Shown: positions 6,162 through 48,300 of the stretch, in pieces
Layout of the letters: each line of letters opens with the position of its first letter
How positions within the stretch are numbered: position 1 is the first letter of the stretch
NCBI GenBank assembly: GCA_001724265.1
Contig: MEDY01000082.1
Span: forward strand, 1-64,000
Source: Rhizaria sp. SCN 62-66
Lineage: Eukaryota
Length of the DNA stretch: 64,000 nt
Direction of reading: 5' to 3'
Position numbers and translations under genes: made by a program
Notes under the pieces: model-generated
The model's input: the letters and a program-made list of their open reading frames with translations, nothing else
Databases searched by the model: none
What the model was told of the DNA's origin: nothing

Positions 6162-6975
6162 CGCGGATAATAAAACGTCTGACGGTAGCCTTTTTGTCGC
6201 ACAGGAAGTGAGTGTAGTCTTTGTGTGCTTGTGTGAGTGTCTACACAGTGAGCAAAGAGCGCGAGTACGAAAGAGCGATGAGGGTTGGCGGGTGAGACTT
6301 TGGAGAAAGATAGGAGAAGGTTTCATCTTATTTTTGAAGATATAATAAAGGATGCTATAATATTTAATCACAAATTAACCAGGAAAACATGTTTGATATT
6401 AAACTGACGACCGGAAGTGCTTATTTAGTTGTTTTTCAAAGCCGACTTAGGAGGGCAGTTGGTCGGTGACTGTGGGCTACCTCTCGGGTCAAGCATGGCC
6501 ATCGTCAAACAATCCTCGAGGCGGCACTTATAGTTCAGTGATCTTCCTTATCGCTTTTAGGAGTGGTTATTTTACAACTTTTATTATATAATCCCTTCAT
6601 TGCGTGCCTTCACACGATTGCGATCCCTTAATTTGCGCTCTCCGCAGTGCTGGGTCACAGCGAGTCAATCTGCCTTGGAGCGTGCCTTGATTTCACCACA
6701 TCTATCCACCATCCACGATTCCAATTACTCTGTAATCTCTCTTTTCCGATTCTTACTTGGAATTTTTATCCAATTTTACTTCTCTTGTCCTTACGAAAAT
6801 TGTTCTTTACGCTTTAGGAGGTTGCTTTCAACCTCACTCGTCACGTTGCCCCTTCTCCTGAGCAGGCACTGGTGACAAAGTCACTCTTGCACTCGCCTTC
6901 TTATTTTCTTTGCGTTCTGCAAGACCCTGTAGTGAGAGTATCCGAGTATTGAGTTTTTGAGTCTGTTTGAGCGCT

Positions 6976-12900: not shown

Positions 12901-13593
12901 GTGCATGATACTGAAGCCGTGAGTATTGGCGCAAAAATTGTTCGTTTCATCAATAATCTCACTTCATTCAGTTGGGGAAGCAGCAGCGACGCTCCTAGTC
13001 CTCACAATGGCACAGGTCCTAGCACTAGTTCTCTCTCGAGCTCCAGTCGCAGTGCAGTTGCTGACGCGGCCGACGTCCCTGAGCTGCCATTGTCGCTGCT
13101 AACTCAGTCCCCGACTCAGTCGCCGATCCCTGAATTCACTGATTCTGGGTCCATCTCCGTCCCCGGCCCGAGCTCAAGCTTCGGCTTTGGATCAGGCTTT
13201 GGTTTAGGCTCCGTTTTTGGCTCTGGGTTTGGCTTAGTTTCAAGTAACAACAACAATAACAACAAATCGCGCATTCCTGCTGTTGCCACCGCAAGCACGA
13301 GTTCCACTGCGAGTTATCCCAGTAGAGTCGGCGTTAACGGCGTGCAGTTCGGCTTGGCGCCCGACTTGCCTATCGGCAACTGGGTGCCTGCGGCGTTTTG
13401 GTACGGCGTTCCCATGCCACGTCACTGGACGGACCTCCCCACTTCCTCAGCCTCCGCTGCCGCTGCCGCCGCCGCAGCCACAGCAGCTGCAGCGGCTGCT
13501 GCCAACGCAGCCACTGCACAGTCGACTGCCAACGCTTACTTGACGACCTCACCCGTCAAGAGTTACGGAAGCAACCGTGATGTGGTGTTTTGA
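6976..13593 (+). CDS. DHHC-type protein S-acyltransferase (Erf2/ZDHHC9-14-18-like), ~2205 aa, no intron needed
   Basis: Complete DHHC cysteine-rich domain [42 protein letters not shown] (DHHC at 9121-9132), DPG motif upstream, TTNED motif downstream, [12 protein letters not shown] N-terminal motif, flanking hydrophobic segments. First ATG 6976, stop TGA. Confidence 0.93.
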   Translation: [2205 protein letters not shown]

Positions 13594-13968
13594 TTTTAAG
13601 CGCTGACTCTTGGCATTGTTGCTCCCAAACGGTGTTTTCTTTGGGTAGAGTTTCATTTTTTTTGGTTTCATTCCTGATTCAACGATATTTTAGTTTTCAT
13701 TGACTAAAGTCGAGTCTTGTTTCATATTCATTTCGTCTAGAGCGTGCATAGCAAATGAATGCTTTCTGTTTTCCCCATCGCAAGTCCTTGTAGTACTTTG
13801 TATTTTCACCCGTTGGTGTTTCTATTATGATCGATGGAAACTAAATATTACGTGATATGTATGCGAGGTAAGCTAAATACATTTGTACAACTATTTCCCC
13901 CACTACTTGTCGAATTGGTGCTAATATAACTGAATCACGTCCATGTCGTCTTTCAAAAGTGATGAAGC

Positions 13969-16900
13969 TTAGTTTTTCGTGGCACTCAGACAGACGTCAC
14001 AGCCAGTGCACTGCACAGTCTCTGCGTCAGGGTCATCAAAGTACCGCATCAACGTCCGCCGTCGACACTCACGCTGAGGCTCGGCAGCTGCCAGACCGGA
14101 CGGCTCCATTATAACCTGCTTGTCGCTGTCAAAGCAGTAATTGATCATGTGCCCCAACAACGTCTTTGCACGCACGGCACCTTCTTTTAGCGTTCCGCGC
14201 TTGGCCTCATGCGCGATGATAAGTTCTGCAGTCTCAATATCACTCTCATCACACAACAAAAGACACTCGGCATGGCCTTTGTCGCGTCCCGCGCGTCCAG
14301 TTTGTTGATAATACCCTTCCAGCGTCATTGGCATACCAAAATGCACAATGCGTCGAATATCAGACTTGTCGATCCCCATTCCAAAGGCTGTGGTTGCCAC
14401 AAGCACGTCAAGCCGGTCATGGGTGAAATCATCCTGCGTCTGGCTTCGCGACTTTTGATCCCGGCCCGCGTGATAGACGCCCACGCGCAGCTGGCGCAGT
14501 TGCGGCAGGGCGGGCGGCGGAGAAAGCGGACTATCGATAGTTGGCACGCAACGGGGCGGAAATGTGTTGCCTGAGGCAGTGCGTTTGAGAGAGTACAAGT
14601 TAGGCCGCGGCGGCGAACGAACTGCGGCTGGGACACTTTCAGATGCAAGACTGATATCAGTCTTTGGCGCAGTGCTGTCATCACGCTTCACTCCAGTCGG
14701 CAACAAACTACTTGCGCTTAAATTGGCACTAACGCTGGCGCTGTTTGCAAAATTGTTTGCGTCTGCGCCTTTGTTATTGTTCATAAGCTCTGCTACGTAC
14801 GTTTCAACACGTTCGAGACTTGGCTCAATCCAAGACAGCTTACTTAAACTGCTCGCCAATTCGTCGGCATCCCTGCGTGTTTGGGCGTATACCACCGTCA
14901 CACCGCCCTTAAGTGCCCCGCATATCCATGGGTTGCGGCGTGGAAAAGTATCATCGCCGTCAACCGCATTTGCAGCGGATATTGCGGTCTCAGCAGCGCG
15001 CAGGATCGCATCGTTATTCGGATCAACATTTACAGCAACAGCTCCATGTTGATGTTGCTGCTGCTGCTGTTGCTCCAGCTGCTTGATACGCCACTGGCGC
15101 ACAATGCGGAGCTTGCGCCGAGTTATCTCAGCCTCACTGGGCACAAACAAAGACCGCAGGTCTTGATCGCAAATGTGCGCATCATTATTGCTGAAACTGG
15201 GAAAGGTCTTGCGACGAATAAAATATACCAGGTTGGGCCTGTTAACGGTGCCGATGTAGCGTGAAACTGGCAGTAGCTTTTCAAACCTTTGACTTGCACT
15301 GACACGCTCATTTAAACTACCATTGTTTCTCATTAAATTATCAGCGTACGTGAAGGTGCTTTGCCAAGGCTGTTGTTCTTGTAGACCAACTTGCTGAATC
15401 ACGTCATCAATAACCTCAGAGGTCGCCGTTGCTGTGAGACAAATCACTGGCAATTCCCAGCCCAGCGCTTCCCGCACTTTCGACAGCAGGCGGAACTCGG
15501 GCCGGAACTCGTGGCCCCACTCTGACACACAATGTGCTTCGTCAACGGCAAGAAGGCCGACAACACCGCGATGGCGCAGCAAACTTAAGCCGCGAAGCCA
15601 GCGCACCGCCTTTTCAGGTGACATGTAGACAAGCGCATACTAGCCGCCGCGCAAAAGGGCGTCGTACTCCTCACTGCTTGTCGTGCGGCTGAGATACAGT
15701 GCGCGCACGCCGCGCGCGTTAAGTCCAGCAACTTGATCTTGCATAAGAGAGATAAGGGGCGAAATGACAACCGTAGTAAGACCCGTTAGCAGCGGCGGCA
15801 GCTGATAGCAGAGCGACTTGCCTTGCCCGGTGGCTTGCATCACGAAGCTGTGGCGCGGCAGTGACACAGGGCCGGTCGCACGAGGAATAGCAGAAACAGC
15901 GGTAAAGATGTTGCTACCGGGCGCATTATCGTCATCATCATTATTATTGTCATCGCCAAGGCTGGAGCTTGCGTTTGCGTTTGATCTCTTGGGAGTAAAA
16001 AGAAAAGATGAGGTTGGGACTTTGCTACTGCCATCATCAGCATATGCGCTCAAAACAACGCCCGGGAACCCAAGTTCTTCAACTGGTCCACTGTTTTTCA
16101 TGATCATTTTGTTTAAGTCGGGCACATTAAACGCAAGAACAGCGTTGGTAACTGCGTTGAGCTGAAATGGTAGCAGACTCTCGCGGTCAATACCAAACGT
16201 GTTCTTTAGCACTGCTACTAGACGTGCAGTCACATGAACCGGCAAGTGAAGAGGAGGCTCGACACGATTTGCCGAAGATTGCGGCCGCGAGTGAGCTTTT
16301 GTTGGGCAATTTAAGTTGGGAGAGTTGTAACATGGCTCATCTTCACTTGCAGCACGATGTAAATGCTGCATCCCAACTACTGATGACGGCGGAGCCAAGT
16401 GCGACCGCGTTGTTGTGGCCAAGCCCTTAGCATGAAAAGCAGTGTTTAAAGAGCTACTTGCATTTGCAGCAGTTGTACGCCCAGACAGCAGATTACGCAC
16501 AGCGCTTGCTAATGCGACTTTCTTGCCAACAATCTTGAACTCGGCCTCAGTGCGCGCCAGCGTTAACAGTGCTAATAGCTGCGGCGTTGCCGGGACCTTA
16601 TTATCGACTTGAGCAATAACACGCTTAAAGATGCATTCATAGTAGCTCATAGCGGCAGTTTGTGCGCTATTGTGCGTGGTTAAAAGCGCCTGGCGTGCGG
16701 ACTGTGTGATGGCCACCACAACAGGCTTCAGCAGCACAAATGTATCGGGAAAATGACGTATCGACGTTATACCCAAGTACACAAATTTGGATAGGATTCG
16801 ATATCGCTTGTCCGCGTCTATGTCATCAGAGTCCCACTGCTGTAGTAGCGGCGGCACATGCTCCGCAAAAAACTCAAGCATTGTGATTGCATATTGGGAC

Positions 16901-19545
16901 CCATTTAAAGGAATAACAGCGTTGTCGTCGTTGTCATCATCATCCTCGCTGTCATTATCACCACCGCCGTTGTTGTTTTGGTCACTTGATGCAAAGAGTT
17001 GAATAAAACGAGATGCTAAGTCAAGATATGCGGAAAGAAAACGTGCGTCGAAGTCGCTGCAGAATGCGGTGCAGAGCCTAGGTGCAATAATCCATGCATG
17101 TCGTCCGCATGCGCGACTAGCATCGCTCCAAATCCACTAAACGTTGAAAACAACATTCTAGTTATCCGCATAATGCTTGACCACTGTCATCAGGGTAGGG
17201 GTTAGCGTCTGAACAATGCTGGCCACAATGGTCTTCAACTTTGACTGGTTCGCTTTGTCACGTGCCTTCGCGTTTACAACGGCAAACCTTATCAGCTTTA
17301 ACACTGTCACCGCATTCTCAGCGTCGGGCGTGCCCGCGGCAAGGTTTTTTACCAGCACGTCGACGAGCCTGTCAAACACGTGCCTCAGCCCTGTCACGAC
17401 AGATTTGGTATCAGGTAGCAGTGCGACGATGACTGTGATCACGGCGGCGAGTGCGTTCTCTTGCGCTTCGGAGCTCAGCGATGGTAGTAAGTCGTACATC
17501 TTGTGAAAAGTGGCCAGACTTGTCGACGCTAGCTCTGACGGCTTCACAACAGCCAGCATGTATAGTGCCGCTGCAGACGCGTCAACAATATTCTGGCCAG
17601 GCGCGGTAATGCCGTCGACAACAAACGCAAGCGCGGAGGCGAGCGCTGCACCAGGGTCAATCCAAGACGCGAGTGAGCCCAACACCAGCGTCGCCGCTGC
17701 ACGTAAAACGCTGTAGCTAAAGGCAACAGATGAGCGTAAGCCCTGCGTTTCAGCCGCGGGACGCACCGCATCAAGCATCCTGCACAGCTCTACGACTAGC
17801 GCAAGTAGTTGAGGTGGAATATCGATATTTGTGAAGTTATTGAATCTGAAGTCAAATATAAAGTTCATCAGGACATTGGCAATACCGCTAAGCGATGCCT
17901 CAAGCATTTGCCACTCTACATCAGTTTGCGCACTGCGTGTGTACGCCTGCAGCTCTTTGATGGCGAGTGGACTTACGACTTGAAGCGACGCACGCAACTC
18001 AAGGCAATCAACGAGGTAAAAAATTGCATTTCCGACTTTTGAAATATGCAATCGCAACTTTTCTAACACATCCTCTGAGAGGTCATGGCTGTCGCAGGGG
18101 TATTGAGCTGTCATTATGAGCGCAGTTAGAGCCCGGTTAAGCAGCTGGACAATCTGCGGCAAGCGCTTCTCCGCAACCTCGACGTGCATCCGCACGTTGG
18201 CCAACTCATCATGACGCATGCTTGCAGTTTTTGATGCGCAGGTAGCCTTATACTTGTCGCAACGCACCAAATTGGAAATATTATCCCAGAACCCAAAAGT
18301 CACTGCAGCCACTGTTTTGGAGCCCAGATCCCCACTTTTGACCCGGGCTTCAGCGTTTGTGCTAGGAGCCAGCGGCTGCACTTCAACAACCTAAACAACA
18401 GCTTCAAGCAAGGCAAGTCCGAAATCATCCCCACTAAGTGAAGCGCTTTGCCATGGCATAGCGGCACGACTGGGAGTGATAAATTCCCGGGACGATAGAG
18501 CCAGGTCAACAAAAACGTGACCCAGCGCAGCGGCTTCTGAAAAAGACCCATCAGTAACAAGTGACTTAAAATGTGACAGAAGAGGCAGAGTAAAAAATGC
18601 AAGGCGTCGCAGCTGCGCTTCAAGCTCAACATCGGCGAGCGCTGTGTACTCCGAAAGCAGCCCCGTGAGCACCCTGCAAGCATTGACAGTGAGCGCGGGC
18701 ACACGCACAGCGTCGAAGAGAGGACGGAAAAGCGCGTGCGACTGAAAAGCCATCGTATCAATAAAGCCCGCGTACACCCAATCTGACAAACAACGGAGAA
18801 CGGCGTTCTGCAAAGGAAAGTCATTCTTCTGCATTGCTTGCTGTCGGATTTGCGTGAGTTTGTCAAGTACGCGCGCTGACTCAGCTTTCAGAGCGGTCAG
18901 TGCAGTTTCCACCACGTAGTTGCGCAGCTCGTTGCATGTGGCGCCGGGCTTTGATGCCGCAACCTTGGCCGTCACAGTCACTTTGATTTTCTCAAGCTGC
19001 GGCGCCGACAACGCATCTATATCAAATGTTATCTCCGCTGAGTACGACATCTGGGCTGCCGTAGCTAAAACTTCCATCAGCGCCGTGCTTGCGGCAGAGG
19101 AGCTTAACTCTGGGTCCTTGCAGTAGCGCGCGCAGACGTCCGGCACGGCGGTGGGCCACTAGCCCGCGCCCGAGAGGTGGTACACGAGCACGCCCACGCA
19201 GCGCGCCAGCCGCGTCGTCACCTGCGCGTACGGCGAGAGAAGGAAACGGTCCAGGTGCCACAACAGCGTGTCGCGGAAGGCGGCGCGCACGGAGGCTGAG
19301 GGCAGCTCGCTGAAGCGGGGCTGCAGCAGGTGTGTGAGCAGCGTGTCGGCAATCCATGAATAGTGCTCCATCTGCAGGTCAGGGTGAGAGAGCAGCTGGT
19401 CCAGGACTTCCCACGCGATGGGCTGGGCCGAGACCCACGTCAGGTAGCGGCTCGCCTTGTCGCGCGCCTCGCTTTCGACTGTGGGCAGGTAGAGCACCGT
19501 TAACGCCTCGCGGCACTGCGCGACGAGTTCATCCCGCGTTGCCAT
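13969..19545 (-). CDS. Importin-13/transportin-SR-like helical region fused to a RecQ helicase (1858 aa), read through five in-frame TAG codons
   Basis: Five listed ORFs (19159-19545, 18391-19146, 17158-18381, 15640-16881, 13969-15624) share one frame and are separated only by TAG (19159, 18391, 17158, 17137, 15640). RecQ motifs: ATGQGKSLCYQLP, VVISPLISLMQDQV, DEAHCVSEWGHEFRP, LTATA, YHAG, VATTAFGMGIDK, YYQQTGRAGRD, Zn-binding CRR..LMRYF..C..CD.C. The N-terminus resembles an importin-beta N-terminal domain (RDKASRYLTWVSAQPIAWEVLDQLL). Ends in TAA. Confidence 0.8.
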
Positions 19546-20532: not shown

Positions 20533-23500
20533 TTATTGCGACGACCGCCATGACCTGGAGCCCTTCCGTGACAGCGCCCCAGTTTGCGCGCGCGACAACG
20601 GCTGCGACCGCGTTTGTCGTGATTGCGACCGCGTCTGCGCCCGCGTCTGCGTCTGTGACTGTGAGCCTAACTGTGAGCGTGACTGTAAGCGTGACTGCGA
20701 CGACTGGGACGACTGGGACGGCTGGGACGGCCTCCGCTGCGCCCCCTCAGCCGGAGCCTGGGTCGCCGCCCGCTTGCTCCTCGTGCCCACACTGCTGCTT
20801 TCGCTCGCGGCGCTCGCACTTGTACTGCTGAGCGCACTCGCGTTACGGTGAGCACTCCTAGCATTTCTGCTGCTGCTGTTGCTGTTTCTGTCGCGCGCAG
20901 AGGTATGCACCACGCCTACAACAACGAGGTCCTCGTCGTCGTCGGGCTTGGCGCCGAGCCTCGTCACCCGCGGCGCCACGGCCGCAGACGCAGACGCAGA
21001 CGCAGTCGCGCCGGTGTCGCCGCCGCCCTTGGCCTTGGCCACCTTGGCCGCAGTAGCCTTCGGCACCTTGGCCGTCGCCTCGTCAGCCGTGGCCTTGTTT
21101 CTAGCGGCCGCCTTGGCTTCGGCTTCAACCTTGACTTGGGGAGCAGCAGCAGCTTCTGCAGCAGCAGCAGCAGCAGCCTTCTTCGCCTTGGCCTCAGCAG
21201 CATCAGCAGCAGCCGCGGCAGCAGCTTTAGCCTTGGCCTCCTTCCGGTTCTTCACAATGCGCTCACGCTCGCTTTCGCTGTCACTCTCACTCTGAGTCGC
21301 GTTTCTCAAGCGATTCGCTCTGGTGACTGATGCTGCCTGTGACTGAGACAACTGCGACGGCGACTGCACCTGTGACAGTGTTTGGGACTGTGAGTCAGTC
21401 AGTGACACCACGTCAGAGAGCAACTGGACTGCGTCCGGCTTTGGCTGCGGCGGCCGACGCTGCTGCGAGCCTTCCTCATCACCAGCCGCAACTCTTAGAT
21501 TCTTCGCAGCGTCAGCAGGGCGCTTCTTTCCAGCACCCTTCGACTTCTCAGCATCAACAGCATCGACAGAGCCCTGAGAGCCACCCTTGTGCCCCACAGA
21601 CTTCGTCACAGCAGCCTTGCTAGCATCTGCGGCAAGGCCAGCGTAAGTGCTCGTGCTGACAGAGGCGATGGCGTCCGTAATTGACTGTGGGTAGCTGAAA
21701 TCTGCGCTGCTCACGGTCGCGACGCGCTGCTGTAAGCGGCGGACAGCCGCGATGGCGCCGCGCATGCGCGCGGTGAAGAGAGACAGCACGCGCGGGGTGA
21801 CCGTGAGCATCGGCGTTGTCGCACTGCCACTGCCACTGCCACTGCCATTCGTACTCGAGCCGGAGCTAGAGCTAGCGCTGGAGTCAGCACTGTTGGAGGA
21901 AGGGAACGAGACGTCGAACATGCGGCCGAGCGTGACCTCGACACCGGTGTGATTCTGGCCGGCAATCGCACTCGAGATCTCACCGCTCTCTTCGTCGTGA
22001 CCGACGACAAAATCAAGAGAAACGCGGCTAGAGCGACTGAACAGATGACTGCTCAGCGCGGCCGCGGGACCCTTGCGGTACAGAGTCACCTGCGTCGGCA
22101 GCGCAGTGCCCTTAGACCCCGCCGGGACGCTGCTCCCTCCTTGCGTTGTAAGCGCGAGCGAGATGTAAGTAGCCAGCGCGGCACCGGCACGCGCGCGCGC
22201 AAAAGCAGTGGGGTTGTCCCAGGGATCTAAGTGGAGCGACTGCGCGAAGGACACAATGTCACTGAGAACACTGGTACTTATACCAGGGGTACTTACGTTC
22301 TCCACGCCGTCATTGTTCACGTTGACAACGTGCCAGACGGAGGCAAATGTGGGGGAGATTTGCGAAAAAGCAAGCAAGTCATTGAGACTCCACTTTGACT
22401 CACCATTCATCTCGTCACCGCTCGCACTAGCGCTGGAAATATTGGCGTCGGCATGATTCATCGTCGCAACAAAGTTCGTGATGGCGTCAGCGCAAATGCC
22501 CTTCATTGCCTGCGCCAACGGCACCTTGCGGGTCTTCTTCTTCTTCCCCGCCATGACTGCCGCAGCGAAGACCTCGGCCTCGGCATCCGCCTCGGCGGCC
22601 AGCAGCGGCAGCGTCGCGGCGTCGAGCGCCAAGCAGGTGTCGGCCGCAGCGGCGAGGGACTGAAGCAGCGCAAGCGTGGCTTCGTACTCCTGGCAGTAGA
22701 GGTGCATCAGGCACTCGGTCGGGGAAAGCTGCAGAGGGGAAATGAGAGGAATCGAGCCGTCGTTGTCGTTCTGATCGTTAACATTGTCATAATCATAGTC
22801 GTTGTCATCGTTGGCGGTGCGAAGGTCGGCGTGCCAGATCGAAGGGGCGGTGTAAGTTCCCGCGGCACTTAGATCCGCCACACTGGCGGGAAGTGAAGCC
22901 GCCAGCGCAGACAAGTAAGGGGGGAGCACCCTTAGACCGGCGGCCAGAGAGAGCGCCGGGGTGACCAAGTCCGCGCCCTGCCCCTGGGTGATACCGGTGA
23001 GATTGACGCCGGCGTAAGACACAACGGGCTCTTGGTCATGCTGCTGCTCTTGCTCATCGTGGTCCAAACGCTTCTTGTGCAGCTGCTGACCTCCTTGCTT
23101 TTGCTCTTGCTCTTGCTCCTGCAGTTGCTGCTGCTGTTGCTGTTGGGTGCGCGCATTCTCCAAGGATAACACAAGAAAAGGAGGCAGGCTGCGGTCACCC
23201 GCGTTGATGTTGTTGTGATTACGACTGGACGCGTTTGTACTCGTGTCTGTGTTCTCCTGGAACTTCGATGCGAACGTGATATACTTCGAGATGTAAGTGC
23301 CTAGCGAGAATGTAAGTACCTGCAGCAGTGTTTTGGGAGACGGCTTCACCGACGGAACAGCAATACCGTTGGCGCTGATGGTACCGCTCGCGCTGTTGAA
23401 GTAGTACGTGTCATCGTAGGTGCTCACACTGAGATCGAAAGGTAACGCCAACGGGTTAGCAATACGCGCAAACAGCAGCGGCGGTGACACGCGCGGAGTC

Positions 23501-26500
23501 GCAACATCGGCGGGGAGACTACTGACGCCAGACAGCTGCACATGTCCCAGCACGTCCGAAGCCCCCGCCTCGTCACTATGGAGGCCGAGGCCGGCGCGGG
23601 TGGGCACGACGGCGGTCAGCAGCGCTTGCGTGGCGAGGGTGGCGGTCTCAGCCCACTCGAGCGCCAACGCAGTCTCGCACACGGACTGCAGCGGCACCAA
23701 CGCGGCGCCGGACGCGGCGAGGATTTGCTTCAACCCCACTGCGGCATTAATCGGACTTGCAGAGGTGTTGCCGTAGCGGCTCACGTTCGACGTGTTGCTG
23801 CCGCTGCTGCCGCTGTTGTTGTTGGTGAGAGTTGAAGAGAGATACGCCCACCAGTTGACCGGCGTGTTCATCGTCGGAGTCCAGTCCAGCTCGCTACTTA
23901 GACGCTCTGAGGAGGCACTTACAGCGCCGTCGCTGGAGGAGGACAGCGATGGGGTACTCAGCGCGATGTAGCTCGGGGTAAGGGGGTTGACGTGGCTGCC
24001 GGTGGCGACGCCCGCGGGGGCACGTAGCGCGCGTTGCACCAAGACAGAGGCAGCGGGACCGAAAAAGGCCGACAGGGCACTCTTGTTGCTGCTGCCGTTG
24101 CGCAAGGCCACAGCAGTGGTTGTGATGTGGGGGCCGAAGACCGCGTTGCCACCAGTGCTCGCGATGAACTTGCTCACAACACTCTCGTGGTAATTCTTGC
24201 TGTCGTTGGCGCTTGTGCCATTCGGGTTGGTGGTGAGATTAGAGAGGAGAGCAGAGAGAATGCCTTGGTAGCGCGCGCGCGCGGCCGGTGACAGCGGCTG
24301 CGGCGGCAGCAACAGGACAGCCTCCGCGAACAACAGTGTGGCGTAAATGGGGCTCACCTTGCCCAATGTCGCAAGGACACGTGCCATGCTAACATCACTC
24401 CGGATAGCAAAGCCACGACTCGCGTTTACACTCGCGCTTGGGTTGGAGGCGTTGGCGTTCGCGGTGTTGGCGCCAGTGATATGAGCGTAGTTAGTGTTCT
24501 TGTTGCTAAGCAAGAGACTGTGAGCCGCGAACGTGTCACGGTCGATAACGCCCGGGTACTTACACAAGTCACTTACAGGCACAACCTCAGTGAACTGGTC
24601 GCCAGTCAAATACACCGACCGGGGCGCCTCCGCAGCGCCACCGGCCGCGGCTGAGGCGACTGTGAGCGGAGGGGACGGGGAAGGCGCGATTTTGACGTTG
24701 TACAGAACAACGACGTCGCCGGCAGCAATCGAGGCCAGCGTTGCAATCCTAATGGAAAATACACAAAAACGACAATTTAATCAGAATTATAATAAGATAT
24801 CGCGAGAAGAATGAAATCAACGATAAAGTGATCTTAGATTCAAGTAGGAGTTGAAATTAAGCGCAGTAAAACATGTTTTCAGCTTTAAAGTTGGTTTTCG
24901 GAAGATTATAAGAAACGTACCTCGTGTTGGACGCCAGCTGCACAGGCACACACACGGGCGCAGGGAAGCTATTGCTGCTCGGACCAAAAGCAGCGTCTTT
25001 AGCGGCAATGATAGCGCGGGAAGTCGAGATGTCAGCAAGACAGAGCCAGCGCTTCGCCATGAGTCCCTTGCCGCCCTTGCTGCCGACACTGGCACGGGCC
25101 GCCGCCGGGGCACTTACACCAACGGCGGAGGTACTTAGACCCCCCTGAGGGTTGTAGATGGCGTCAGTTAGCGACGCCGCGTTGGCTTTGGCGTGCGCCT
25201 TCATCGACAGCACAGACGCCAAGTTACTGTGGTGACCGTGGGCAGCGCCGGAGCCAAACATACTAGTCGCAGGAGCAGTGGCAGCGCCCGTGGCGGGGGC
25301 GCCAAAGGCTGAGCGCTCGAGCTTCGACGCACGGACGACAATACCGACAACGTTCACAGTCTTTCCTTCGGGCTGCGTGTAGAGCTCGTCTAACGGGGTG
25401 AACGGCGGGTGTAAGTACCCCATCCGGCCGCACTGCGGCGCCAACCGGGGCGCAGGCAGCTGCTGCTGCGACAACACAAACACATCCGCCTTGGGCTTGA
25501 TGGGGTTCAGCGAGATCTCAACCGCGTGACCGTGGGTCGCGGGCGGCTTAACTTTAAAGTTGCGGATCATGATGACGTCACCGATGTTAATGCGCGTATA
25601 ATGGTCGCGGACGAGCGAGTTCCACAGCGTCGCCTTGATGCTGGCACCGGTGTTGTCGGTCAACAGCAGCTCAAACAGGAAAGGAGCCGGCTGGTAGTCA
25701 CGGCCCTTGAGGGACGCGAAGGTGTTGGCGTTGTTGAGATTCGTGACAAGGTCAGCGTCAATGTTGTTACCGCCACTGCTGCTGCTACTAGAACGGGGCG
25801 TGGCGACAGTGTTGATCGGCTTCATGACAACAGAACCGACATTGCTCGTGTCATCACGGAGAGTCGAAGTGCTGATCGCGGCGCTACCCGCAGCGCTGAT
25901 CGCACTCACAAGCGCATTGCTACTGCTCGTGCTCGCGCTCTCGCTAGCGTGAGTTGCGCTGTTATCGCTGTCAGTCATACCGAGTGCGATGCTGCCCGTG
26001 GAAGTAGCGCCGCGGTCAGGCAGCGTGCCCCACTGGCCAAGCCCAGCCTCCGTCAGCGTGTCCTGATACACCGCCGCGTGCAAGCTACTTACATGCCCGC
26101 CCATGCGCCCCTTGCCCCTCGCAGCCTGGGCCGTGCTTGTACCAGCGGCTGAGGGAGCGTTGAGACCCGCGTTGGCGCTGGTGATCGCGCTGGTCTTGCT
26201 GGTCACATACGCGACCGGGTTAGCGTGGCTGCCGAAGCGCACGACGCGGCTCTTGGCCGAGACGCGCGCGATAAGCGTCGTCTCGGGGCGCACGGCCGCG
26301 GGCTCGGCGGCGAGCAGGGCGGCGACGGAGGTTAAGCTGTTGAGCATGCCGTCCGCGGCGGAGTTGAGGAGGACACAGGCGGCGGCCACGGTGTTGTCGG
26401 CCTTCTCTTCAAACCCGCCGAGCAAGCTAGAGCTAGTCAAGTTAGCGGCATCGCTGTCACGAGCAGCGTTGTTGGCGGTGCTGGCGGTGGCGGCGCGATC

Positions 26501-29500
26501 AGAGGCTAGGAACGGGGACCACGGTAAAGCAACGATGCCGTTGCCACCGTTAGCATTAGCGCTCGCAGTCGAGCTAGAGTGGGAGTGCGCGTGAGTGTCC
26601 TTGGTGATTTGTGGCAGCAGTGATAGCGCAGTGGAGCTACCGATGTTAGCGTGGGCGTTCATGGTGCTAAGAGATGAGAGCGGGAGCGCAGTCGTCGTCG
26701 TGTGCTGATAGTCAGTCAGCATGTCACTGACATTCAACAGAGGCCTCTCCTCGTCGTCCTCAGCTGCAGCTGCTGCTGCTGATGCGGTGGTAGCGGCGCC
26801 GTCGGTGGTTACCTCAAGAAGCCCCTCGTCATCCTCGTACTTATCGTAGTCAATTACAGCGATGCTATTGTCGACAGCGTCGCTATCAGACATCTTGACC
26901 GAAGAAGCGCTGTTGTTACTGACACGAGAGCTGTTGGGGTTTGCGCCCACAGCGGGGAAGAGCCAGTTAGCGATGGTGACGGCCTCGGCAACAGCAGCTG
27001 CCCCAGTCTCCGCCTCGGCCTCCGAGTCAGAGTGCGAGTCGTCGGACCCACTCGTGCTAGGACCCTTCTTGCTCTTGCTCTTGCTGGCGTTGTTGAGCTG
27101 CTCCAGCTGCTTCAGCAGCAGCGGCAGTTGCACGAGCCAGTTGTTGCGAACGCTGACGCCGACCTCGACCGCCGCCGCGACCGCTGCCGCGGCCTCAGCC
27201 TCGGCCGCCTCCGCAGCCGCGGTCGCCTGGTGCCGCAGCCGCCGCAGCTGCTGCTTCTGCGCCTTCTCAGCGTCCTTGTTCGCGCTAGAGCCGGTCGCGG
27301 CCGCGGCGGCCGCGGCGGAGGCCGCCTCAGCCTCAGTGACGAGAGCGGCCGCCGCGGTGACGGTTGTAACGGCAGCAACAGCCTTGGCCCTGGCCGCGCG
27401 CCTGGCCTGACGCTTCGCCGCCGTGGCCGCCGCGGCCGCGGCCGCCGTGGCCGCCGCAGTCGCAGCTTTGGCCGCGGCAGCGGCGGCGGAGGCGGCTTCG
27501 AGCCGCTGCGCACGGTCATACGGCGCGGTCCGCCAGTCTAAGGGGTAGTCGCTGTCATTTAAGGGGGCGGCAATGAGGCTCGCAGCGGGGGTGGCGTTGA
27601 GGTTTGCGATATAGCTGGAGACGGACGCAAGGAAGGCGGACGTCGCGGACTCGGCGGCCGCGGTGCTTGCGGTGGCGGAGCACAGCGGCTGCGGCAAAAG
27701 CACGGACAGCATATTGTCGGCATCCGGCGCGCTGGCTTGACTCGCGACCTTGTTAGCATTCGTGACCGTGAGCACGCCGACGTTAGACGAGTGAGTAGAG
27801 CTTGTGATTGCGCTGACGACGCTTGCTTTGCTGGCGTTGCGGGTGAATGCAAGGGCGGGGTGTAAGGGTGCGGGCATCACAGGCACTTCCGCGCCCTCAT
27901 TCGCATACAACGGCACGTAGAACGTCGACAGCGACAACAGCGGCCGCGACTGAGTCTCCAGCGCGCCTTGTTGACTCAGCCAAACCAGGGCCTCTCCAGC
28001 ATCCGCAGCGGCGGAAAGTGGAGGGGGGCGAAACACGTGACCCGCGAGGGCGAACTCGCCGCCGCTCACGGTCATCTGGCTGCTCACAGTCGCGGCAAAG
28101 CCACTGCTGCTGCTGCTGCTGCTGCGAACGTTCGCTCCCTCAGCACTCGTCGTAGTCACGAAATCAGCGCTGTTGCTGCGGTATGTAAGGGGACAAATGA
28201 GTGCGCCATTGCCAGTAGGCGCCCCCTTAGACTGGTTTAAGGGGTTGAAGGGCGTGCCGGTGAGCAAGCACGTCCAACCGAAGGGGGACATAGCCTCCGT
28301 GGTCACAAACACAAGGCTCTTTTCACTCGCACTCGCCTCGCTGCTGCTGCTGCTGCTCGCGGCCGCGGTAGTGCTAGCTGTGCTGGCAGTGGGGGCTTCG
28401 AATGCAAGGACGACGTTGTCCCTGATGTCGGCGACTGCGCTCATCCTAGCACTGGTAAATGCGCAATCGCCGTACTGTCCGTCTGAGACGTAAGTACCCT
28501 TCGACTCGAGCAGTGTAAGTGCCGCGGGAACGGCGCAGTCGCGCATGTAAGTAGCCGTGAGCGCAAACAAGCTCGCCACAGACTCGGACTCAGCGTTGTC
28601 TAAGCGGATGGTCAAGAGCTTGCTATCGTCTCCACTGTTGTTCTTGCCGTCATCAGACCCGGGCGACGCGAGGAACAGAGCAGACTGAACAAGGGATAGC
28701 AGCTCAGCACTGCTGGTGCCAGCAGCAGCGGCCGCAGTTTCAAACGCCAAAGTGAGTCCAGAGGTAAAGCTAGAGCTAGAATTAGCGGCGGAGTTGGAGT
28801 TTGTGTTGTTAAGAGCGATACCGGTGTTACCAAGCCTCAGACCGCCACCACTCGTGTGAGATGTGCTTAGAGATGTTTTGGCGAGGGCGTTAGTGTGCGT
28901 GATCGCAGCGAGTGCGAGTGCCAGCGCGAGCTTATAGGGCACGCCGACGACGCTGAGCGCTACAGCAGTGCTGTGGGCCGCGAGCATCAGCGCCCGCAGC
29001 TTGTACGCGACACACGCCTGGACAAACACGCTACTCTCATCGCTAAAGCCACGATCACTGCCACTTCCATTGACAGCATTCGCACTGGCGCTAGCGCTAG
29101 CGCTGGCACTGGAGGCGGCACTCGTTGCAGCGAGAGCAACCGCGTTGTTGTTGTTGTTAGCGTCGGCGTTCGCGTTGAAGTTACTGTTGTTGGCGATCGT
29201 GAGAGCGAGGTGACTCCAATCAGCGCTACTTAGACCCGTGTACGGGGCGGCGGTACTTAAATCATGCGCGTACGCGTCCCTGAGCACATTGACAGTAGAC
29301 AGCGGCACTTCGCCGCTCACAGTCACTCGGCTCCACTGGGTGACCGTGAGCACGGTGCCGTATCTAAGTACCCCACTAAGTACCAGCGGCGCGAGACGCG
29401 GGTGCAGCAGCAGCTTCGTCTGGTAACGGCCGTCAGTAAGCACGATGTCGTATCCCAAAGTTAAGTCGTGCAGCGGCTTGTTCACGGCCGAAGTTAAGCT

Positions 29501-30793
29501 GCTGCCGAGACCGAGAGGAGAGAGTGAGCTGAAATTGATGACGTCAGCGTTTGCCTTAGCGATGATACGGCTGACAACCTCATCTTGCTGCTCGTGCGCC
29601 TGGCTGCGACTGTTGTTGCGGCTATCAGCCCTGGCCGCGGCAGCCATGGCCGCCACGGAGGCCAGCAGTGGCTGAGAAAAGGGCGTTGTGTGTGCGGTGT
29701 TGCAGTTGTCGACGGTGGCGTACATCTGGGGACTCGCGAGGAACGCGTGGATCGACACCACTTGAAGCGTGATTCCACTTCCGCTATCATTACTACTGAC
29801 ACTAGCTGCGCTTGAAGAAGAAGACTCATTCGCATTCGCACTCGTACTCGCATTCGCACTCGCGCTCAAGCTCGCGTTGGTGTTGTTCGAGATTAAGCCG
29901 CTGTTGTTGATGCCATTGTTCAAAATCAAGCCGCCCATGCGGAGCAGATCACTGGCGAAAGCTCCCTCCTCGTTCGCGTTCTGCTGATCGCCGTCAGAGG
30001 CACGCGTACCGGCGGCACCCGCGGTGCCCGAGCTCGAACTACTGGAGCTACTCGTGGCCTGGCCCTGGCTCTGGGGCAGGCAGTAGGTCTGCAGCAGCAC
30101 GGGGACGCCGTTCGCGGTGAGCAGAGGCAGCGGCAGACACGGGGGGCCCTGGAGCAAGCCCGCCGGCACCGCAGGGGCCGCCGCCGTCGCCGCCGCCGCA
30201 GCAGCTGCAGCAGGAGCTGCAGTCGCTGCAGTCACAACCACACCAGCATCTGCACTAACATTCGCGGTGTTGCCGCTGCTATTGCCGTCAGCGGGGGGCG
30301 TGAGGAGAGTGTGGACGCTTTTGCGCAGCTGCAGCAGCTGCTCCGTCCGCAGCGGCGACTTCGTGCTGAGGTTCGCGCCCGCAGCAGCAGCAGCGTCGTC
30401 AGCTCTGCTGGCCGCCGTGGCTGTGGCGGTGGCGGGCGGTGTGATGTGGCTCAGCAGCCCCGTTGCCAGCCGCAGCAGGCAGCGGCGCGCGACGACCGGG
30501 CCGGCGCCCAGCTCCAGCAGCGTCTGCCAGTCACCGCTTCCCTGCACCGCAAAAGTGGCGTTGCTACTATGAGACGAGGCGGGGGCGGGGGCGAGGGTGG
30601 GCTGGGGGAGGTTGAGAGCGAGGGCGGTGGCCAGGAGCTTGGGGTTCTTCGTGAGGGTCGAGAACAACACGGAATGGTGCGGAGCGCGCGCTAAGAGCGA
30701 TGTCAGCGAGGACTCAGCAGGGGCTGCCGCCGCCGCAGCAGCAGCAGCGGAGGCGGAGGCAGCAGCGGACGCGTTGCTGGATCGTGAGGTCAT
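20533..30793 (-). CDS. RADX-like (RPA1-related) multi-OB-fold ssDNA-binding protein, ~3362 aa; exons 30793-24921 and 24748-20533
   Basis: OB-fold blocks in RADX order: YDIVLTDGRYQTKLLLHPRLAPLV; LIARVSAKSRVVRFG...FELLLTDNTGASIKATLWNSLVRDHYTRINIGDVIMIRNFKVK...EISLNP; VNVVGIVVRASKLERS...RWLCLAD. A phase-2 intron joins the two long ORFs in frame. Stop TAA. Confidence 0.78.
24749..24920 (-). other. Spliceosomal intron (172 nt)
   Basis: AT-rich island; GTACGT donor, ...ttttccattAG acceptor; join gives SNTR-IATLASIAAGDVVVLYNVKI. Confidence 0.9.
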
Positions 30794-32147
30794 GTTATTG
30801 CACAGTCGCACGATGCAGGCGCAGTGAGGTGCGCGTTAGGCGTTAAGCACGCGGTATGCGAGAGAGAAAGAGTGGTGTTTGCTTGGGCTGCTGCAGGATA
30901 GAACAAGCCAGATGCAGGGGCCGCCACTGGGGGTTGAGGTGGAAGTGCGGTCGTCTCGCTGCTCGGGAGAGAAGGATCGAACCTGAAGGTGCTCTGCACG
31001 AGAGGCATAAGCAAGATAAGAGAATTCAAGCAGGACAAGGACGTGTAAAAGCGTTATTCAGTACAATTTGCACGGGTTGCAAAGACAAATAGTGTAGGGG
31101 CATGGTGGGCAGCGCATGGAAAGCGAGCGAACGAATGGCGGGAAGGGCGCTTGGCGCCACAAGCAAGTCGTATCATTTCTCGTTCTAGTACAAAATTATG
31201 ACCATCAGTGAAAAAAATCAAAAACAATCCCAGCTAATATCAATCATTTCACACAATATATTTTAATTAAATATCTTAAGTCCAGAAATACACACCACAA
31301 GCGACATTTCTCCACACTTGACCCTAGCTTGACGACGACGAAGAACTAAAAACTGTATCGACAAGCTTTGGTCTGCGAGCTGGCTCGTTGGCGGCCGAAG
31401 AGGCTGACAAAGCAGGCTTCGAGGGAGGCAATGAGCTCGTCAGTTCACTATGTGCGCTTTTGTATACGAGAATATACCTTAGTTCTCTTCATGTTTGATT
31501 TTCAATTTGTGCGCAATGCTTATATTTGTGCTGCTGCGGCTGGACAAGGCAGTGCGTGCGAGTCGCGTCCTCCTAGGCGGCCATCGCGTCTTCAACACCA
31601 CATTTCGTCCTCAAACACGATACTTTTCGTTGTGAAACTTTTATTTATTGCTATTAATTTTAGTATATTTTACTATAATCTTGCAGTACCCGCTAAATCG
31701 CCCACATTCCTCTTGAATTCCCTCATTTTGCGTGTATCTCGTGCGTTTTGAAGACCGCTTTTATTGGCCGCGTCATCCAAGCTTTTCTTCGACGTTTGTA
31801 GCCGCGCTTCGTGACGTTCCCTTTTTCTTAGCACACCTCGCTGCCGCCTTTAGAGAGAGCTCCTCCGCGGTTTTGCTTCTCTCTGCGCACGCGTTGGCTG
31901 GCGACACGGTTTGCGTTACTCTTCACCCCTTTTAACTCACCTCAGCGTGGTTTTTGAGTGAACTTCGGCCACCATTTCGTCGCCGCTCCTCTCAAGCTCT
32001 TCCCCTCGCACCACCGCTAATCTTAACATCACCGCTAGCAGCGCCGCCAAGAACAACACCGGCAACGCGACTGACAACAGCGTCGGCACTTACCAAGCCC
32101 CTCCTCCCGTTCCACACAACAACAGCAACTCGACACTCAAGGAGGAG

Positions 32148-32170
32148 CAACAACAGCAGCAACAGCAGCA

Positions 32171-32210
<40 letters not shown>
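32148..32210 (+). repeat. (CAG/CAA)n microsatellite, poly-Gln in the frame continuous with the ABHD17-like gene
   Basis: About 20 consecutive CAR triplets. Confidence 0.85.
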
Positions 32211-32212
<2 letters not shown>

Positions 32213-45358: not shown

Positions 45359-48300
45359 ATGAGCAGCACTCCGTCAGAGCAAGCCGGCTCTAGCTCGAGC
45401 TCTTGCTCTGGCTCTGACTACGACTCAATCTGCGCCTCAAGCTCCAGCTCTAGCTTTGATGCTGCGACTACCGCTGTTGCGGCGCCCGTGCTAGCAGGCC
45501 CCGTTCTTTTGTGTAGCGCAACAGCAGCAGCAACATCAGCAGCGTTAGCGTCAAGTGTCGACAACTATGACTCGAGCTTGAGCTCTCGCTCTTGTTTCAG
45601 TTCCAACTCTTATTCGATTATTCATACAGTGTCTCAAGGTCACAGCACCACATACTGCCCTGTCACTCCCTCCTGCTCCTCGGCCAACTGCGACAGTTCT
45701 ACTGCTGCTGCTGTTGCTGCTGCGGCTACCACGCTGGGGGCGCTGAGGCGCGACTGCGACCTCATCGTGAGGCGACTTGTGCCGTCAGCCGCTGACGCTG
45801 CCAAGAAGGCGTCGGCGTACGCTTTCATCACGAAGGTACGGTAATGTTCCGAAGCCTTAGCGAAATCAACTATATTCTGAACAGAATTCCGCACATGGAC
45901 GTTTTCGTCATCTCGACATCACCCCTGTAATCTGTAACGTTGTCTCGCAGTCTCAACAACTCCAACCTTTGGTTCCTTACTCGCCTCTTTATTCGCCTCT
46001 TTGTTGACAGCTGATAACGCGCGCCTACCCCAGCGCACTGCCTTTTCTCTTCGGCTCCACCCCGCTGCGGCTCTGTTTCGCCTCCTCAGACGTCGACGTG
46101 GGAGTCTGTCTCACCGCGGCCGACAGTAGGCACTTTTTCACACGGCTGAGCAGCATGTTGCGGATCTACGCAGACGGCTACGCTCGCGGCCGCCACAATA
46201 ACAACAATAACAACAACAGTAGTAGTGGTAACAGCAGTCATACGGGGACGAGAATGACGAGTCGCCGCAACAGCCACGGCAACATCAGCGCGAGCGCGAC
46301 TGCCAAGAGTGATAAGAGCAATCGGCGCAAGCACCTCGCGCAGGCGCAGTCGTAGAGTCAGAATCAGGGAGTTGCATTGATTCCGCCGCTGGTACCGATG
46401 TGCCGCTCGTGTGCTTACCCTGCTCTCCCGCACACGGGAGCTGCCAGTGCTAGGAGCGCAGCAACAGACGTGGCAACTGCTTCAGTGCAAGTGCAAGACG
46501 AGGGCCGGGGCCGGCTGAGCCTGGGCGTGAGGGCAGCGCTGCTCCTGCAGAATCAGGCTCTACGCATCGGTTACAGTCAAAGCATCAACAGCAACATGAG
46601 CAGCGGCGATCCCAACGGCAATAGCAGTCGTGACAAGAGCGCGTGCAGTGATATCTCGAGAGATGGCAGCGCTCCTGTGTGTGCTGAGGAGGAGCATAAG
46701 AACACTCTCCCTGCCTCAAGCAATTACAACACACAGGCCGATAACAAGAGTAATGTTTTGATTTCTACGAACGGCAGTGCTGTGGCTGGTTGCACTAGCT
46801 CTCGCGTTGTGTGCTGCCGTGTCTGTGGGAAGCCCTTAGACGGCCTCGCAGCCCTTACAACCACACGTAGAGCACCGACCAATAGCACGACCAGTGCAAG
46901 CGCCTTTGATAGCGCCGGCTCTGCTGACGAGGCAACGAACGACTCCACCACTAACATGAGCAGTAGCGTTTTCGCAAGCACACAGGCGAGTGACGCTGAC
47001 AAGAACAACAACAGCAATAACAGCAGCGCGAACGCGACGAGCACCACCGCGAATAGCGCGAATGGGACTGCTGCGAATACTGCGGCTGCGGTCGCTGCGC
47101 CTGGCACCAGCTCTGCCGCTGCCGCGAATGCCGACGCGTGGCTGCCGATCACCGCGCTCACCTTCACCCAGGTACGCATTTATTCATCAACTCAACGCTA
47201 TTGACATTTTCCCTGAACTTCGATGTCTGGTTTTATGTTCTCTTTATATATTCTGCATTCTCTCTAAACACTCTTCTCCATTTCTCTTTTCTTCCCCCTA
47301 AACGCATCTCAACACGCAGGCCGAAGTGCCCGTGCTCAAGTGCAACATCGCGGGCGTCTCGGTCGACATCACCACCAACACCGCTGCCGCCGTGGCCACC
47401 GCGCGCGCCACCGAAGCCCTCGCCACCGCCATCGGCCGCGGGTCTCTGCTCAAGCGCTCCGTGCTGCTCTGCAAGGCGTGGTGTGGTGACGAAGCCAAGG
47501 CGCTGGGCTCGTCGGTGTTCATGCTGTCTTCGTGTGCGCTCACGGTCATGGTGTTCTACGTCGTCAACTTCCACATGCGGCTAAACTTAGCGACGAATAC
47601 CAAGGGCCGCCTGAGCTTAAAGCAGCACGCGGGTGAGGGCCGCGGCGCAGACTCGGACTCCGGGCCACACGCGGGATCTGGCGGCAGTGGCGAGAGCGAG
47701 GGTGCGGATGTAAGTACCCCCTTAGACGTGCTGCTGGTGTTCCTGCGCGTGTTTGCCACGTTCGACTTCTCTCGCTTTGCGGTGACTGTCGCGGGGCCTG
47801 TGGGCGTGCGCAACCCAGCGCACCCGCCATTGACTGCCCCTTGCCCCCCACCCCCCCAGCCACTGCAGTCTCAGCCTTATCCTCCGTCTGAGTCCGGCGT
47901 ACCGTCGCGGTCGCAGCCTCCGTGTCTGTCTCAGTCTCAGTCGCAGTCTCCGCGGGTGAGCTTTGCGGGTCGGCTGGCTGCGGGGGCGCTCGCAGGAGTG
48001 GATAGTGTAGGTGCTGGTGGTACTTACAATAGTGTAAGTGCCGCTGCGCACCTATGCACTCGTTTCACGCTACCCTTGCCTGTGCAATCCACCGCCACTC
48101 CCACTGCCATTGCCACTGCCACTTCAACTGTTGCTGCTGCCACAGCTGCCGTGACTGAGAGCTGCACGCACAGCTCAAGCGGCGTTGGCGCGAGTCCCAG
48201 TGCGCGCGTCAGCGTTGCGGGTGCCGCTGTTGGAGTCGACGTCAACGTCACCGTCAACACTGACACCGAGACCGGCAGTGACGGCGAGAGCGAGAGCGCG

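Follow-up and report, generated by a model that had tools for sequence, protein, structure and literature searches.

A candidate karyopherin-RecQ helicase fusion with five in-frame TAG codons in an uncultured, GC-rich microbial eukaryote

Introduction

RecQ helicases may carry large additional modules ahead of the helicase core: WRN combines an exonuclease with RecQ, and RECQL4 an Sld2-like region with RecQ. At the other end of the family, the RECQ5-type minimal core consists of the helicase and the zinc subdomain without a canonical winged helix. Karyopherins, for their part, are free, recycling carriers, and the N-terminal region of transportin-3 (TNPO3) and importin-13 (IPO13) contacts Ran in solved complexes. 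Here we describe a gene in which a karyopherin of the transportin-3/importin-13 type appears to be joined in frame to a RecQ helicase. It lies on the minus strand, at 19545..13969, of the first 64,000 nucleotides of contig MEDY01000082.1 (Rhizaria sp. SCN 62-66, assembly GCA_001724265.1), a stretch that we refer to as the window. The organism, an uncultured, GC-rich microbial eukaryote, occurs in wastewater, bioreactor and fuel-cell metagenomes. The gene runs from ATG to TAA over 1858 codons, provided that five in-frame TAG codons are read through, and we put the probability that TAG is translated and the chimera functional at roughly 0.55.

Genetic codes in which UAG is a sense codon while UAA and UGA remain as stops have been described in Iotanema spirale, with UAG read as Gln, and in the rhizarian exLh, with UAG read as Leu (PMC5304391). 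As far as the portion of that report drawn on here extends, codes with UAG alone as the reassigned stop are documented in very few lineages other than ciliates (PMC5304391).

Results

When TAG is taken as sense, the frame of the fusion gene contains five TAG codons (129, 385, 796, 803 and 1302) and not a single TAA or TGA, in agreement with an earlier note on this DNA, made from the letters alone, which had described the frame as continuous once TAG is read through. Since this stretch contains 82 stops in frame +1 (TAA/TAG/TGA 29/15/38) and 130 in frame +2 (25/14/91), the frame of the gene is much more open than would be expected by chance. The predicted product begins with MATRDE, as does P0002, a stand-alone karyopherin related to that half. 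The features of the gene are the following, with residues of the fusion protein in brackets.

13969..19545, minus strand: whole frame, 1858 codons, with the ATG at 19545-19543 and the TAA stop at 13969-13971
16489..19545, minus strand: predicted karyopherin-beta module of the transportin-3/importin-13 type, an all-helical solenoid (residues 1-1019)
19114..19497, minus strand: N-terminal region aligning to the transportin-3 N-terminus (residues 17-144)
19159..19161, minus strand: TAG codon 129
18667..18894, minus strand: Pfam Xpo1, exportin-1-like (residues 218-293)
18391..18393, minus strand: TAG codon 385
17158..17160, minus strand: TAG codon 796
17137..17139, minus strand: TAG codon 803
16225..16488, minus strand: linker of 88 codons, predicted disordered, with an internal Met at codon 1059 (residues 1020-1107)
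13972..16224, minus strand: predicted RecQ core, two RecA-like lobes with three disordered inserts, and zinc subdomain (residues 1108-1858)
15640..15642, minus strand: TAG codon 1302, in the first RecA lobe, five residues ahead of the conserved Y-x2-PE
15406..15855, minus strand: Pfam DEAD (residues 1231-1380)
14281..14496, minus strand: Pfam Helicase_C (residues 1684-1755)
13987..14085, minus strand: Pfam RecQ_Zn_bind, PF16124 (residues 1821-1853)

Under the standard code the gene is broken into open reading frames (ORFs) of 128, 251 (255 codons from stop to stop), 407, 413 and 551 amino acids, plus a piece of six codons; the five fragments anticipated in the earlier note are therefore those of real size, and strictly there are six. 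Standard gene callers cut the gene into such pieces, and a public protein collection holds parts of it as the separate entries P0230 (407 amino acids), P0111 (413 amino acids) and P0110 (551 amino acids). Introns or bypass at the TAG codons were ruled out, as the alignment with P0002 continues uninterrupted across four of them. Genuine termination at codon 129, with the remainder left untranslated, was also ruled out, both because the GC content of third codon positions (GC3) declines gradually along the gene (0.83, 0.92, 0.74, 0.57...) with no step at codon 129, and because the remaining 1730 codons contain no TAA or TGA. The bases 3' of the five TAGs (TGG, GTT, AAT, TGG and TAT) have no known readthrough motif in common.

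On sequence grounds, residues 1108-1858 are a RecQ core with its zinc subdomain. Pfam models for DEAD (62.1 bits, with GQGKS and DEAH motifs), Helicase_C (55.6 bits) and RecQ_Zn_bind (29.4 bits, cut-off 25) were all detected, and the four cysteines of the zinc subdomain, spaced C-x19-C-x2-C-x2-C, could be aligned to E. coli RecQ. A phmmer search against PDB ranked E. coli RecQ first (1oyw, 206.9 bits, E 4.6e-60), followed by WRN (1.4e-55), RECQ5 (1.2e-51, 179 bits), BLM, RECQ1 and RECQ4 (7.9e-40). With 294.7 bits the protein exceeded the cut-off of 219.8 of the NCBIfam family model TIGR00614 (recQ_fam), and its 294.5 bits on TIGR01389, the bacterial RecQ equivalog, did not reach the cut-off of 640.2. 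An alignment of 25 RecQ proteins has 74 columns with a conservation of 90% or more, of which the fusion protein keeps 71, 18 of 19 ahead of TAG1302 and 53 of 55 after it, the mismatches being D1232H, L1386V and G1756K. When the homologues were left out one at a time, they kept 69-74 of 74-78 such columns, excluding one fragment (47 of 78).

The helicase ends shortly after its zinc site. Pfam reported no match to RQC (PF09382) or HRDC (PF00570) in the fusion protein, the ORF ends six residues past the fourth zinc cysteine, and the 376 bases downstream to the next gene contain no open frame, so that a RecQ core and zinc subdomain with no winged helix or HRDC behind them, as had been proposed for this DNA, is what the models find. 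Membership in the RecQ family stands despite these absences, because neither domain is universal in it. In a quick maximum likelihood tree (39 rows, 388 columns, LG+G4) the RecQ half fell into a clade of 13 eukaryotic rows with a Shimodaira-Hasegawa-like approximate likelihood ratio test (SH-aLRT) value of 99, which comprises green algae and plants, a diatom, Pelomyxa, a chytrid and transcriptome entries, and which is separate from BLM/RECQ5, RECQ4 and the sampled bacterial groups. Since several members of this clade have RQC and HRDC, their absence from the fusion gene reflects a loss. The end branch of the fusion RecQ (0.92) is the longest in its clade. An AlphaFold2 model of residues 1020-1858, built on 26 sequences (predicted template modelling score, pTM, 0.63), gave a predicted local distance difference test score (pLDDT) of 84-96 in the core blocks, and of less than 50 in three inserts at model residues 133-204, 430-525 and 572-654.

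Residues 1-1019 are assigned to the transportin-3/importin-13 type of karyopherins. With a single sequence, phmmer aligned residues 17-144 to residues 17-136 of TNPO3 in PDB (E 8e-5), and a profile built from the karyopherin part of the fusion protein together with its stand-alone relatives P0002 and P0231 matched TNPO3 at E 8.1e-27, IPO13 at 2.5e-10 and Drosophila Cadmus at 2.6e-9, with no other karyopherin in PDB scoring E 1 or better. Searched against proteins of 566-1918 residues, the same profile retrieved P0002 and one fungal protein of 970 amino acids only, the latter at E 7e-6 and carrying IBN_N, Xpo1 and TNPO3_IPO13 domains. These results substantiate the helical importin-13/transportin-SR-like part of about 1000 amino acids that had been recognised in the earlier note. 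As regards the Pfam models by which that note proposed to check the protein, Xpo1, DEAD, Helicase_C and RecQ_Zn_bind scored above cut-off and IBN_N (PF03810) was not reported. Xpo1 reached 24.9 bits (E 2.4e-5, cut-off 22.7) when the N-terminal half was searched alone and 20.4 bits with the whole protein. The second to fourth TPR_TNPO3_IPO13 models fell short of their gathering scores, TNPO3_IPO13_4th giving 12.8 bits on the fusion protein against a cut-off of 27 and 21-24.5 bits, likewise under cut-off, on its relatives; weak matches to these TPR domains are thus a trait of P0002 and P0231 as well.

Structure prediction, the other check proposed for this half, led to the same family. The AlphaFold2 model, obtained with three sequences as input, contains 44 helices (mean pLDDT 64.7, pTM 0.45), and Foldseek placed IPO13 (2xwu_B, E 1.2e-16, template modelling scores 0.60/0.67) and transportin-3 at the top. 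In VIA-align superpositions, TNPO3 (6gx9_A) gave Z 23.5, with model residues 1-1023 on chain residues 2-871 at 18% identity, and IPO13 (3zjy_G) gave Z 23.4, with model residues 2-1022 on chain residues 19-902 at 17% identity; both cover about 820-830 residues and end some 50-60 residues ahead of the chain ends. CRM1 and exportin-5 reached nearly equal Z values, but at 10-12% identity as against 17-18%. Because these more distant receptors superpose about as well, the fold alone speaks only for a karyopherin-beta, and the assignment to the TNPO3/IPO13 subfamily draws on the sequence.

The two stand-alone relatives also indicate how the fusion may have arisen. P0002 (1058 amino acids) is 49% identical to the fusion protein over residues 1-1019, and P0231 (1096 amino acids) is 36% identical to its karyopherin part. 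On contig L001, the P0002 gene terminates in TGA, and the sequence behind it looks non-coding. The last approximately 95 residues, in which P0002 and P0231 agree up to a common acidic C-terminus, form a conserved tail that is missing from the fusion gene, and a tblastn search of the window with P0002 recovered this tail (some 92 residues) in no frame. Since the relatives stand alone, the P0002 gene ends in its own TGA and the conserved tail is absent from all frames of the window, the stand-alone karyopherin would be the ancestral form, and the fusion would have been derived from it via loss of the 3' end and the stop. It is unlikely that P0002 is a paralogue in the same genome, because its third positions (G 0.47, T 0.07) and its relative synonymous codon usage (RSCU; correlation 0.80, as against 0.92-0.95 among the larger window genes) differ from those of the window genes. 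In runs X2 and X4, short contigs match 19123-19199 with five differences, one of them a GAG at the site of TAG129. Such contigs fit the GC-richer L001 (GC3 0.89), so at least two runs, as well as one metagenome, would contain both the relative and the window organism.

Conservation along the karyopherin half is uneven. Codons 1-128 show 72-79% residue identity to P0002, as against 37-60% afterwards, and over the first 190 codons or so synonymous similarity to P0002 also exceeds that of the rest of the gene. Together with the high GC3 of this part, such conservation suggests that the N-terminal region is under the strongest constraint.

Between the two modules lies a linker whose 88 codons, with a GC content of 0.51, hold no stop in frame and four stops in each of the other two frames; a stop-free linker frame has P 0.02 by shuffling. 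The low-complexity linker lacking an AT-rich spacer or a TAA/TGA that had been noted earlier is accordingly found again. Its pLDDT lies below 50 (model residues 1-74), and neither BLASTP nor tblastn detected similarity to the karyopherin or RecQ families, or to anything else. Similarity to the stand-alone karyopherins stops at residue 1019, and the first conserved RecQ helix follows the linker.

The earlier note had named a misassembly at the junction as a result that would overturn the fusion. An artefact joining two genes would be conceivable in what is probably a metagenome assembly, and there is a low-complexity repeat at 15923-15987. We consider it extremely improbable, and reject it for the junction, as contigs from other studies span that point: a single X2 contig of 5727 bases covers 13503-19199, and X4 contigs cover 13182-16887 (3706 bases) and 16948-19199, while no repeat was found at the linker. 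Moreover, the metagenome contig L002 is 99.9% identical to the window over 1317 bp (19479-18163) and keeps TAG129 and TAG385. TAG129 is also retained in DNA contigs and in a poly(A) RNA contig of the X5 metatranscriptome (18949-19259). No change was seen at any TAG codon in contigs of the window's own type, TAG129 being replaced by GAG only on the short L001-like contigs; among strains at less than 1% divergence such conservation is expected under any model, and it is not counted as support.

No second case of this architecture was retrieved. When the whole protein was compared, by a word-indexed search, with proteins of 1021-3252 residues, 108 matches were obtained, none with both parts (one stand-alone karyopherin, the others RecQs). 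Likewise, a HMMER search of 1.84 billion representatives with the junction-spanning residues 600-1420 returned no two-part protein among the best 150 matches, which comprised the three pieces of the fusion gene itself, P0231 as a stand-alone protein, and matches to RecQ alone. These two database-wide protein searches agree with the earlier statement that no karyopherin-RecQ fusion was known. Among shorter proteins, the RecQ half recovered its own pieces at 100% and then nothing above 53% identity, that is, no close stand-alone orthologue. Scans of genome contigs and viral contigs for the organism or its kin gave no match, and that of metagenomes only two short contigs. A full-text literature search, judged by titles, found no paper on a RecQ-karyopherin fusion. 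We infer that the fusion is real and lineage-specific.

As regards the meaning of TAG, the 12 long ORFs of the window terminate in TAA (six) or TGA (six) and never in TAG. From the fusion gene's own codons, a random nonsense hit would yield TAG with a probability of 0.45-0.49, and five TAGs out of five would have P about 0.02. A second candidate in-frame TAG lies at 46353-46355 (plus strand) in the ORF 46155..47204, whose upstream ATG can be used only with readthrough; the 81 codons between its two ATGs have a coding log-odds of 0.43 per codon, the other frames giving -0.78 and -0.24. It is therefore likely, judging from one or two genes of the 64-kb window, that TAG is translated. Table 15, in which TAG encodes Gln, would be one of two or more possible readings.

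That the five stops are all TAG would also be expected if adenosine-to-inosine (A-to-I) RNA editing turned UAG into UGG (Trp) in some life stage, TAG being the codon that such editing converts, and editing would account for the restriction of TAGs to particular genes. In filamentous ascomycetes, the part of a report that we rely on describes the editing of UAG to UGG in 'premature stop codon correction' genes (PMC7306014). We regard this explanation as very improbable for the gene described here. The poly(A) RNA contig reads TAG at codon 129, though contigs drop minority variants; the TAG sites are occupied by E, Q/T, Q/P and V in the relatives, and never by W; nothing links the organism to the fungi with this kind of editing, and the lack of TAG among the 12 terminators would be left unexplained.

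Codon usage sets the fusion gene apart from its neighbours. Its GC3 is 0.56, as against 0.62-0.80 in the neighbours, and its third positions are near-uniform (A 0.17, C 0.27, G 0.29, T 0.27), those of the neighbours being C-rich. ATA occurs 12 times in it and four times in the 13,686 codons of the 11 neighbouring ORFs, a 22-fold excess, and CGA is 4.7-fold enriched. An exemption of this gene from the strong codon selection of the organism, of which the ATA excess would be another sign, could explain why TAG, as a very rare sense codon, would pile up in it and be missing from the neighbours, and the low codon bias would fit a protein of low abundance. Along the gene, GC3 is 0.83-0.92 over codons 1-128, 0.74 over the next 64 (19545-18970 corresponding to codons 1-192) and 0.33-0.63 thereafter. 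The third positions of codons 1-128 (G 0.45, T 0.05) are closer to those of L001 than to those of other window genes. This 5' excess could stem from tighter constraint, from biased gene conversion or from an exchange of the 5' end.

Single-nucleotide polymorphisms (SNPs) among strains, taken from contigs of X2, X5 and X6 and from contig L002, show signs of purifying selection on the fusion gene: seven of the 11 are synonymous and four non-synonymous, where 35% synonymous would be expected for transitions (P 0.048). All four SNPs in the RecQ half are synonymous, and three of these lie beyond the last TAG, as against three synonymous SNPs out of seven in the karyopherin half. This asymmetry would suit an arrangement with two products, in which RecQ is made alone or additionally from the internal Met1059, with the karyopherin part as leader or remnant. 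Met1059 sits 49 codons ahead of the first conserved helicase helix, and in the nearest RecQ relatives the helicase begins at about residue 30-110, so that only 30-110 residues precede their core. Such an arrangement appears improbable to us, since TAG1302 interrupts the helicase and TAG would have to be read anyway. Moreover, no stop closes the karyopherin frame, which runs into the open linker (P 0.02), and nowhere in the gene are conservation and codon bias higher than in its first 128 codons.

Several observations weigh against a translated TAG and a functional chimera. With no in-frame TAG in the 13,686 codons of the 11 neighbouring ORFs, TAG is at best very rare, and by analogy with TTG and CTG a normal sense codon would be expected to be far commoner. 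With an assumed TAG share of 20-30% among terminators, its absence from 12 of them could arise by chance with P about 0.01-0.07. No tRNA gene was found in the 64-kb window, and an Rfam scan of the window gave no match. The residues opposite the first four TAGs in P0002/P0231 are E/E at codon 129, Q/T at 385, Q/P at 796 and V/V at 803, and thus point to no single amino acid; opposite TAG1302, RecQ homologues have D in 21, E in 16, Q in 15 and K in 10 of 107. The fusion gene has the lowest codon bias in the window, with a log-odds of 0.014 per codon as against 0.26-0.52 in its neighbours, and the loss of codon bias in a gene whose modules are both C-terminally shortened also fits decay. A relative-rate test with P0231 as outgroup counted 200 unique changes in the fusion karyopherin half and 39 in P0002, although this test depends on an unproven root and distances alone give similar branches for the fusion protein and P0231. 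The SNP test is small (n = 11), and in the karyopherin half the ratio of three synonymous to four non-synonymous changes is near neutral. The X5 poly(A) RNA contigs lie on 14354-14865, 15803-16228, 16285-16501 and 18696-19259, none of them bridging 16229-16284 in the linker; TAG1302 and most of the karyopherin half are left uncovered, and these parts are uninformative. Contigs of this kind cannot prove one transcript, and the RNA library may contain DNA.

Much of this could be explained by a young pseudogene or dead chimera, a recently inactivated duplicate or foreign copy in which TAG is a stop and translation ends at codon 128. Five premature TAGs concentrated in one gene, its weak codon bias, the truncation of both modules, the near-neutral SNPs of the karyopherin half and the long branches in the karyopherin comparison and in the RecQ tree are all in line with it. 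The intact helicase motifs are no obstacle to it either, as about 150 neutral substitutions predict only four to five changes in the 74 RecQ columns, and the three seen are compatible with recent decay. We nonetheless consider a pseudogene unlikely. Nonsense changes make up 3.3% of the possible single-base changes in the fusion gene, so five of them would correspond to roughly 150 substitutions, which at usual indel rates would be accompanied by several indels; the 5.6 kb nevertheless contain no frameshift, and the 1858 codons neither TAA nor TGA. Near-uniform third positions require far longer to reach, with the frame still open throughout, which counts against a plain pseudogene. That all five stops are TAG, that TAG terminates none of the 12 long ORFs, and that the SNPs lean synonymous, in the RecQ half without exception, are also at odds with it.

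No introns are visible in the other genes of the window, which are long ORFs. In some of them the first ATG is immediately preceded by a stop-free, ATG-free, coding-like stretch in the same frame, at 4321-6237 (minus strand; 639 codons, log-odds 0.35 per codon) and 31962-32966 (plus strand; 335 codons, 0.44 per codon), where the other frames are negative; similar stretches occur at 24388-24780 (minus strand) and 47302-47520 (plus strand). These genes must begin further upstream, in a preceding exon or at a start codon other than ATG, so introns may not be wholly absent from the window. Recognisable neighbours encode a DHHC palmitoyltransferase (2205 amino acids), a RabGAP-TBC protein (2235 amino acids), an S33-type hydrolase and a Macro-domain protein, and long homopolymer runs (Q, A, N) are common in the neighbouring ORFs. 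An Atlas look-up of a neighbouring hydrolase gave a eukaryotic origin. Seven of the 11, up to 1978 amino acids in length, had no Pfam match at E 0.001.

226-4320: neighbouring ORF with no Pfam match
20533-24387: neighbouring ORF with no Pfam match
24857-30793: neighbouring ORF with no Pfam match
40973-44356: neighbouring ORF with no Pfam match
46398-47204: neighbouring ORF with no Pfam match
47521-52425: neighbouring ORF with no Pfam match
52900-53982: neighbouring ORF with no Pfam match

Discussion

Our analysis suggests that a gene of the transportin-3/importin-13 type lost its last 95 or so codons together with its stop, and that the shortened karyopherin frame came to run, across a disordered linker of 88 residues, into a RecQ helicase that retains only its two RecA lobes and the zinc subdomain. 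The five TAGs would be translated, TAG being a very rare sense codon that would most likely be read as Gln or Glu, though the aligned residues fix neither, while TAA and TGA would terminate genes. The product would be one low-abundance polypeptide of 1858 residues, in which the helicase is tethered by about 90 flexible residues to a HEAT-repeat solenoid that has lost its last repeat. From the conserved residues, the RecQ motor is predicted to be minimal but catalytically competent.

Two roles might be envisaged for the solenoid. It could serve as a built-in nuclear import and Ran-sensing device, or as a scaffold bringing the helicase to the former cargo of the receptor. Because the putative Ran-binding N-terminal region is the best conserved part of the protein, the helicase could carry itself through nuclear pores, or could be positioned or regulated by RanGTP or by the cargo-binding arch. 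A Ran-responsive or scaffold-tethered helicase is thus our best guess at its function. In its widest form the proposal would be that an unsampled lineage reads UAG as a rare sense codon, and that one organism within it has fused a transport receptor to a RecQ helicase which is controlled by the RanGTP gradient; we hold this to be possible, if rather doubtful. Neither the fusion nor such a code in this lineage is known to have been described before.

Should the translated chimera be confirmed, a helicase permanently fused to a karyopherin would constitute a natural experiment on the control of genome maintenance by Ran and HEAT-repeat receptors, and the RecQ family would gain a new kind of N-terminal partner beside the WRN exonuclease and the Sld2-like region of RECQ4. 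The five TAGs, in turn, could lead to a eukaryote that reads UAG as sense and retains UAA and UGA as stops, and a TAG codon used at very low frequency bears on how code reassignments begin.

Compared with the described RecQ helicases, the fusion protein resembles WRN and RECQL4 in placing its RecQ core behind a large unrelated N-terminal module on one polypeptide, and differs from them in that this partner is a karyopherin of about 1000 residues. With the RECQ5-type minimal core and E. coli RecQ it has in common the helicase lobes and the four-cysteine zinc subdomain. Unlike these, it ends just past the zinc site, with nothing replacing the winged helix or wedge, and has three long disordered inserts.

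Among karyopherins, the closest counterparts are TNPO3 (transportin-SR2, yeast Mtr10) and IPO13 (Cadmus), to which the N-terminal region of the fusion protein can be aligned by sequence and on which the whole 1-1020 model superposes. The identity is only about 20%, and the alignments stop at residue 871 of 923 in TNPO3 and at residue 902 of 963 in IPO13. In contrast to both receptors, the fusion karyopherin would continue covalently into a helicase.

With respect to the code, I. spirale offers the nearest parallel. In the portion of the report relied on here, none of 119 complete transcripts, and of 730 contigs, terminates in TAG, as compared with none of 12 ORFs in the window (PMC5304391). 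Termination at both TAA and TGA is common to I. spirale, as presented there, and to the window, and a sense TAG within a conserved gene would be a further resemblance. The two differ in frequency, TAG being far rarer here, with five or six occurrences in one or two of 12 genes as against the 204 in 126 genes given for I. spirale in that part of the report (PMC5304391).

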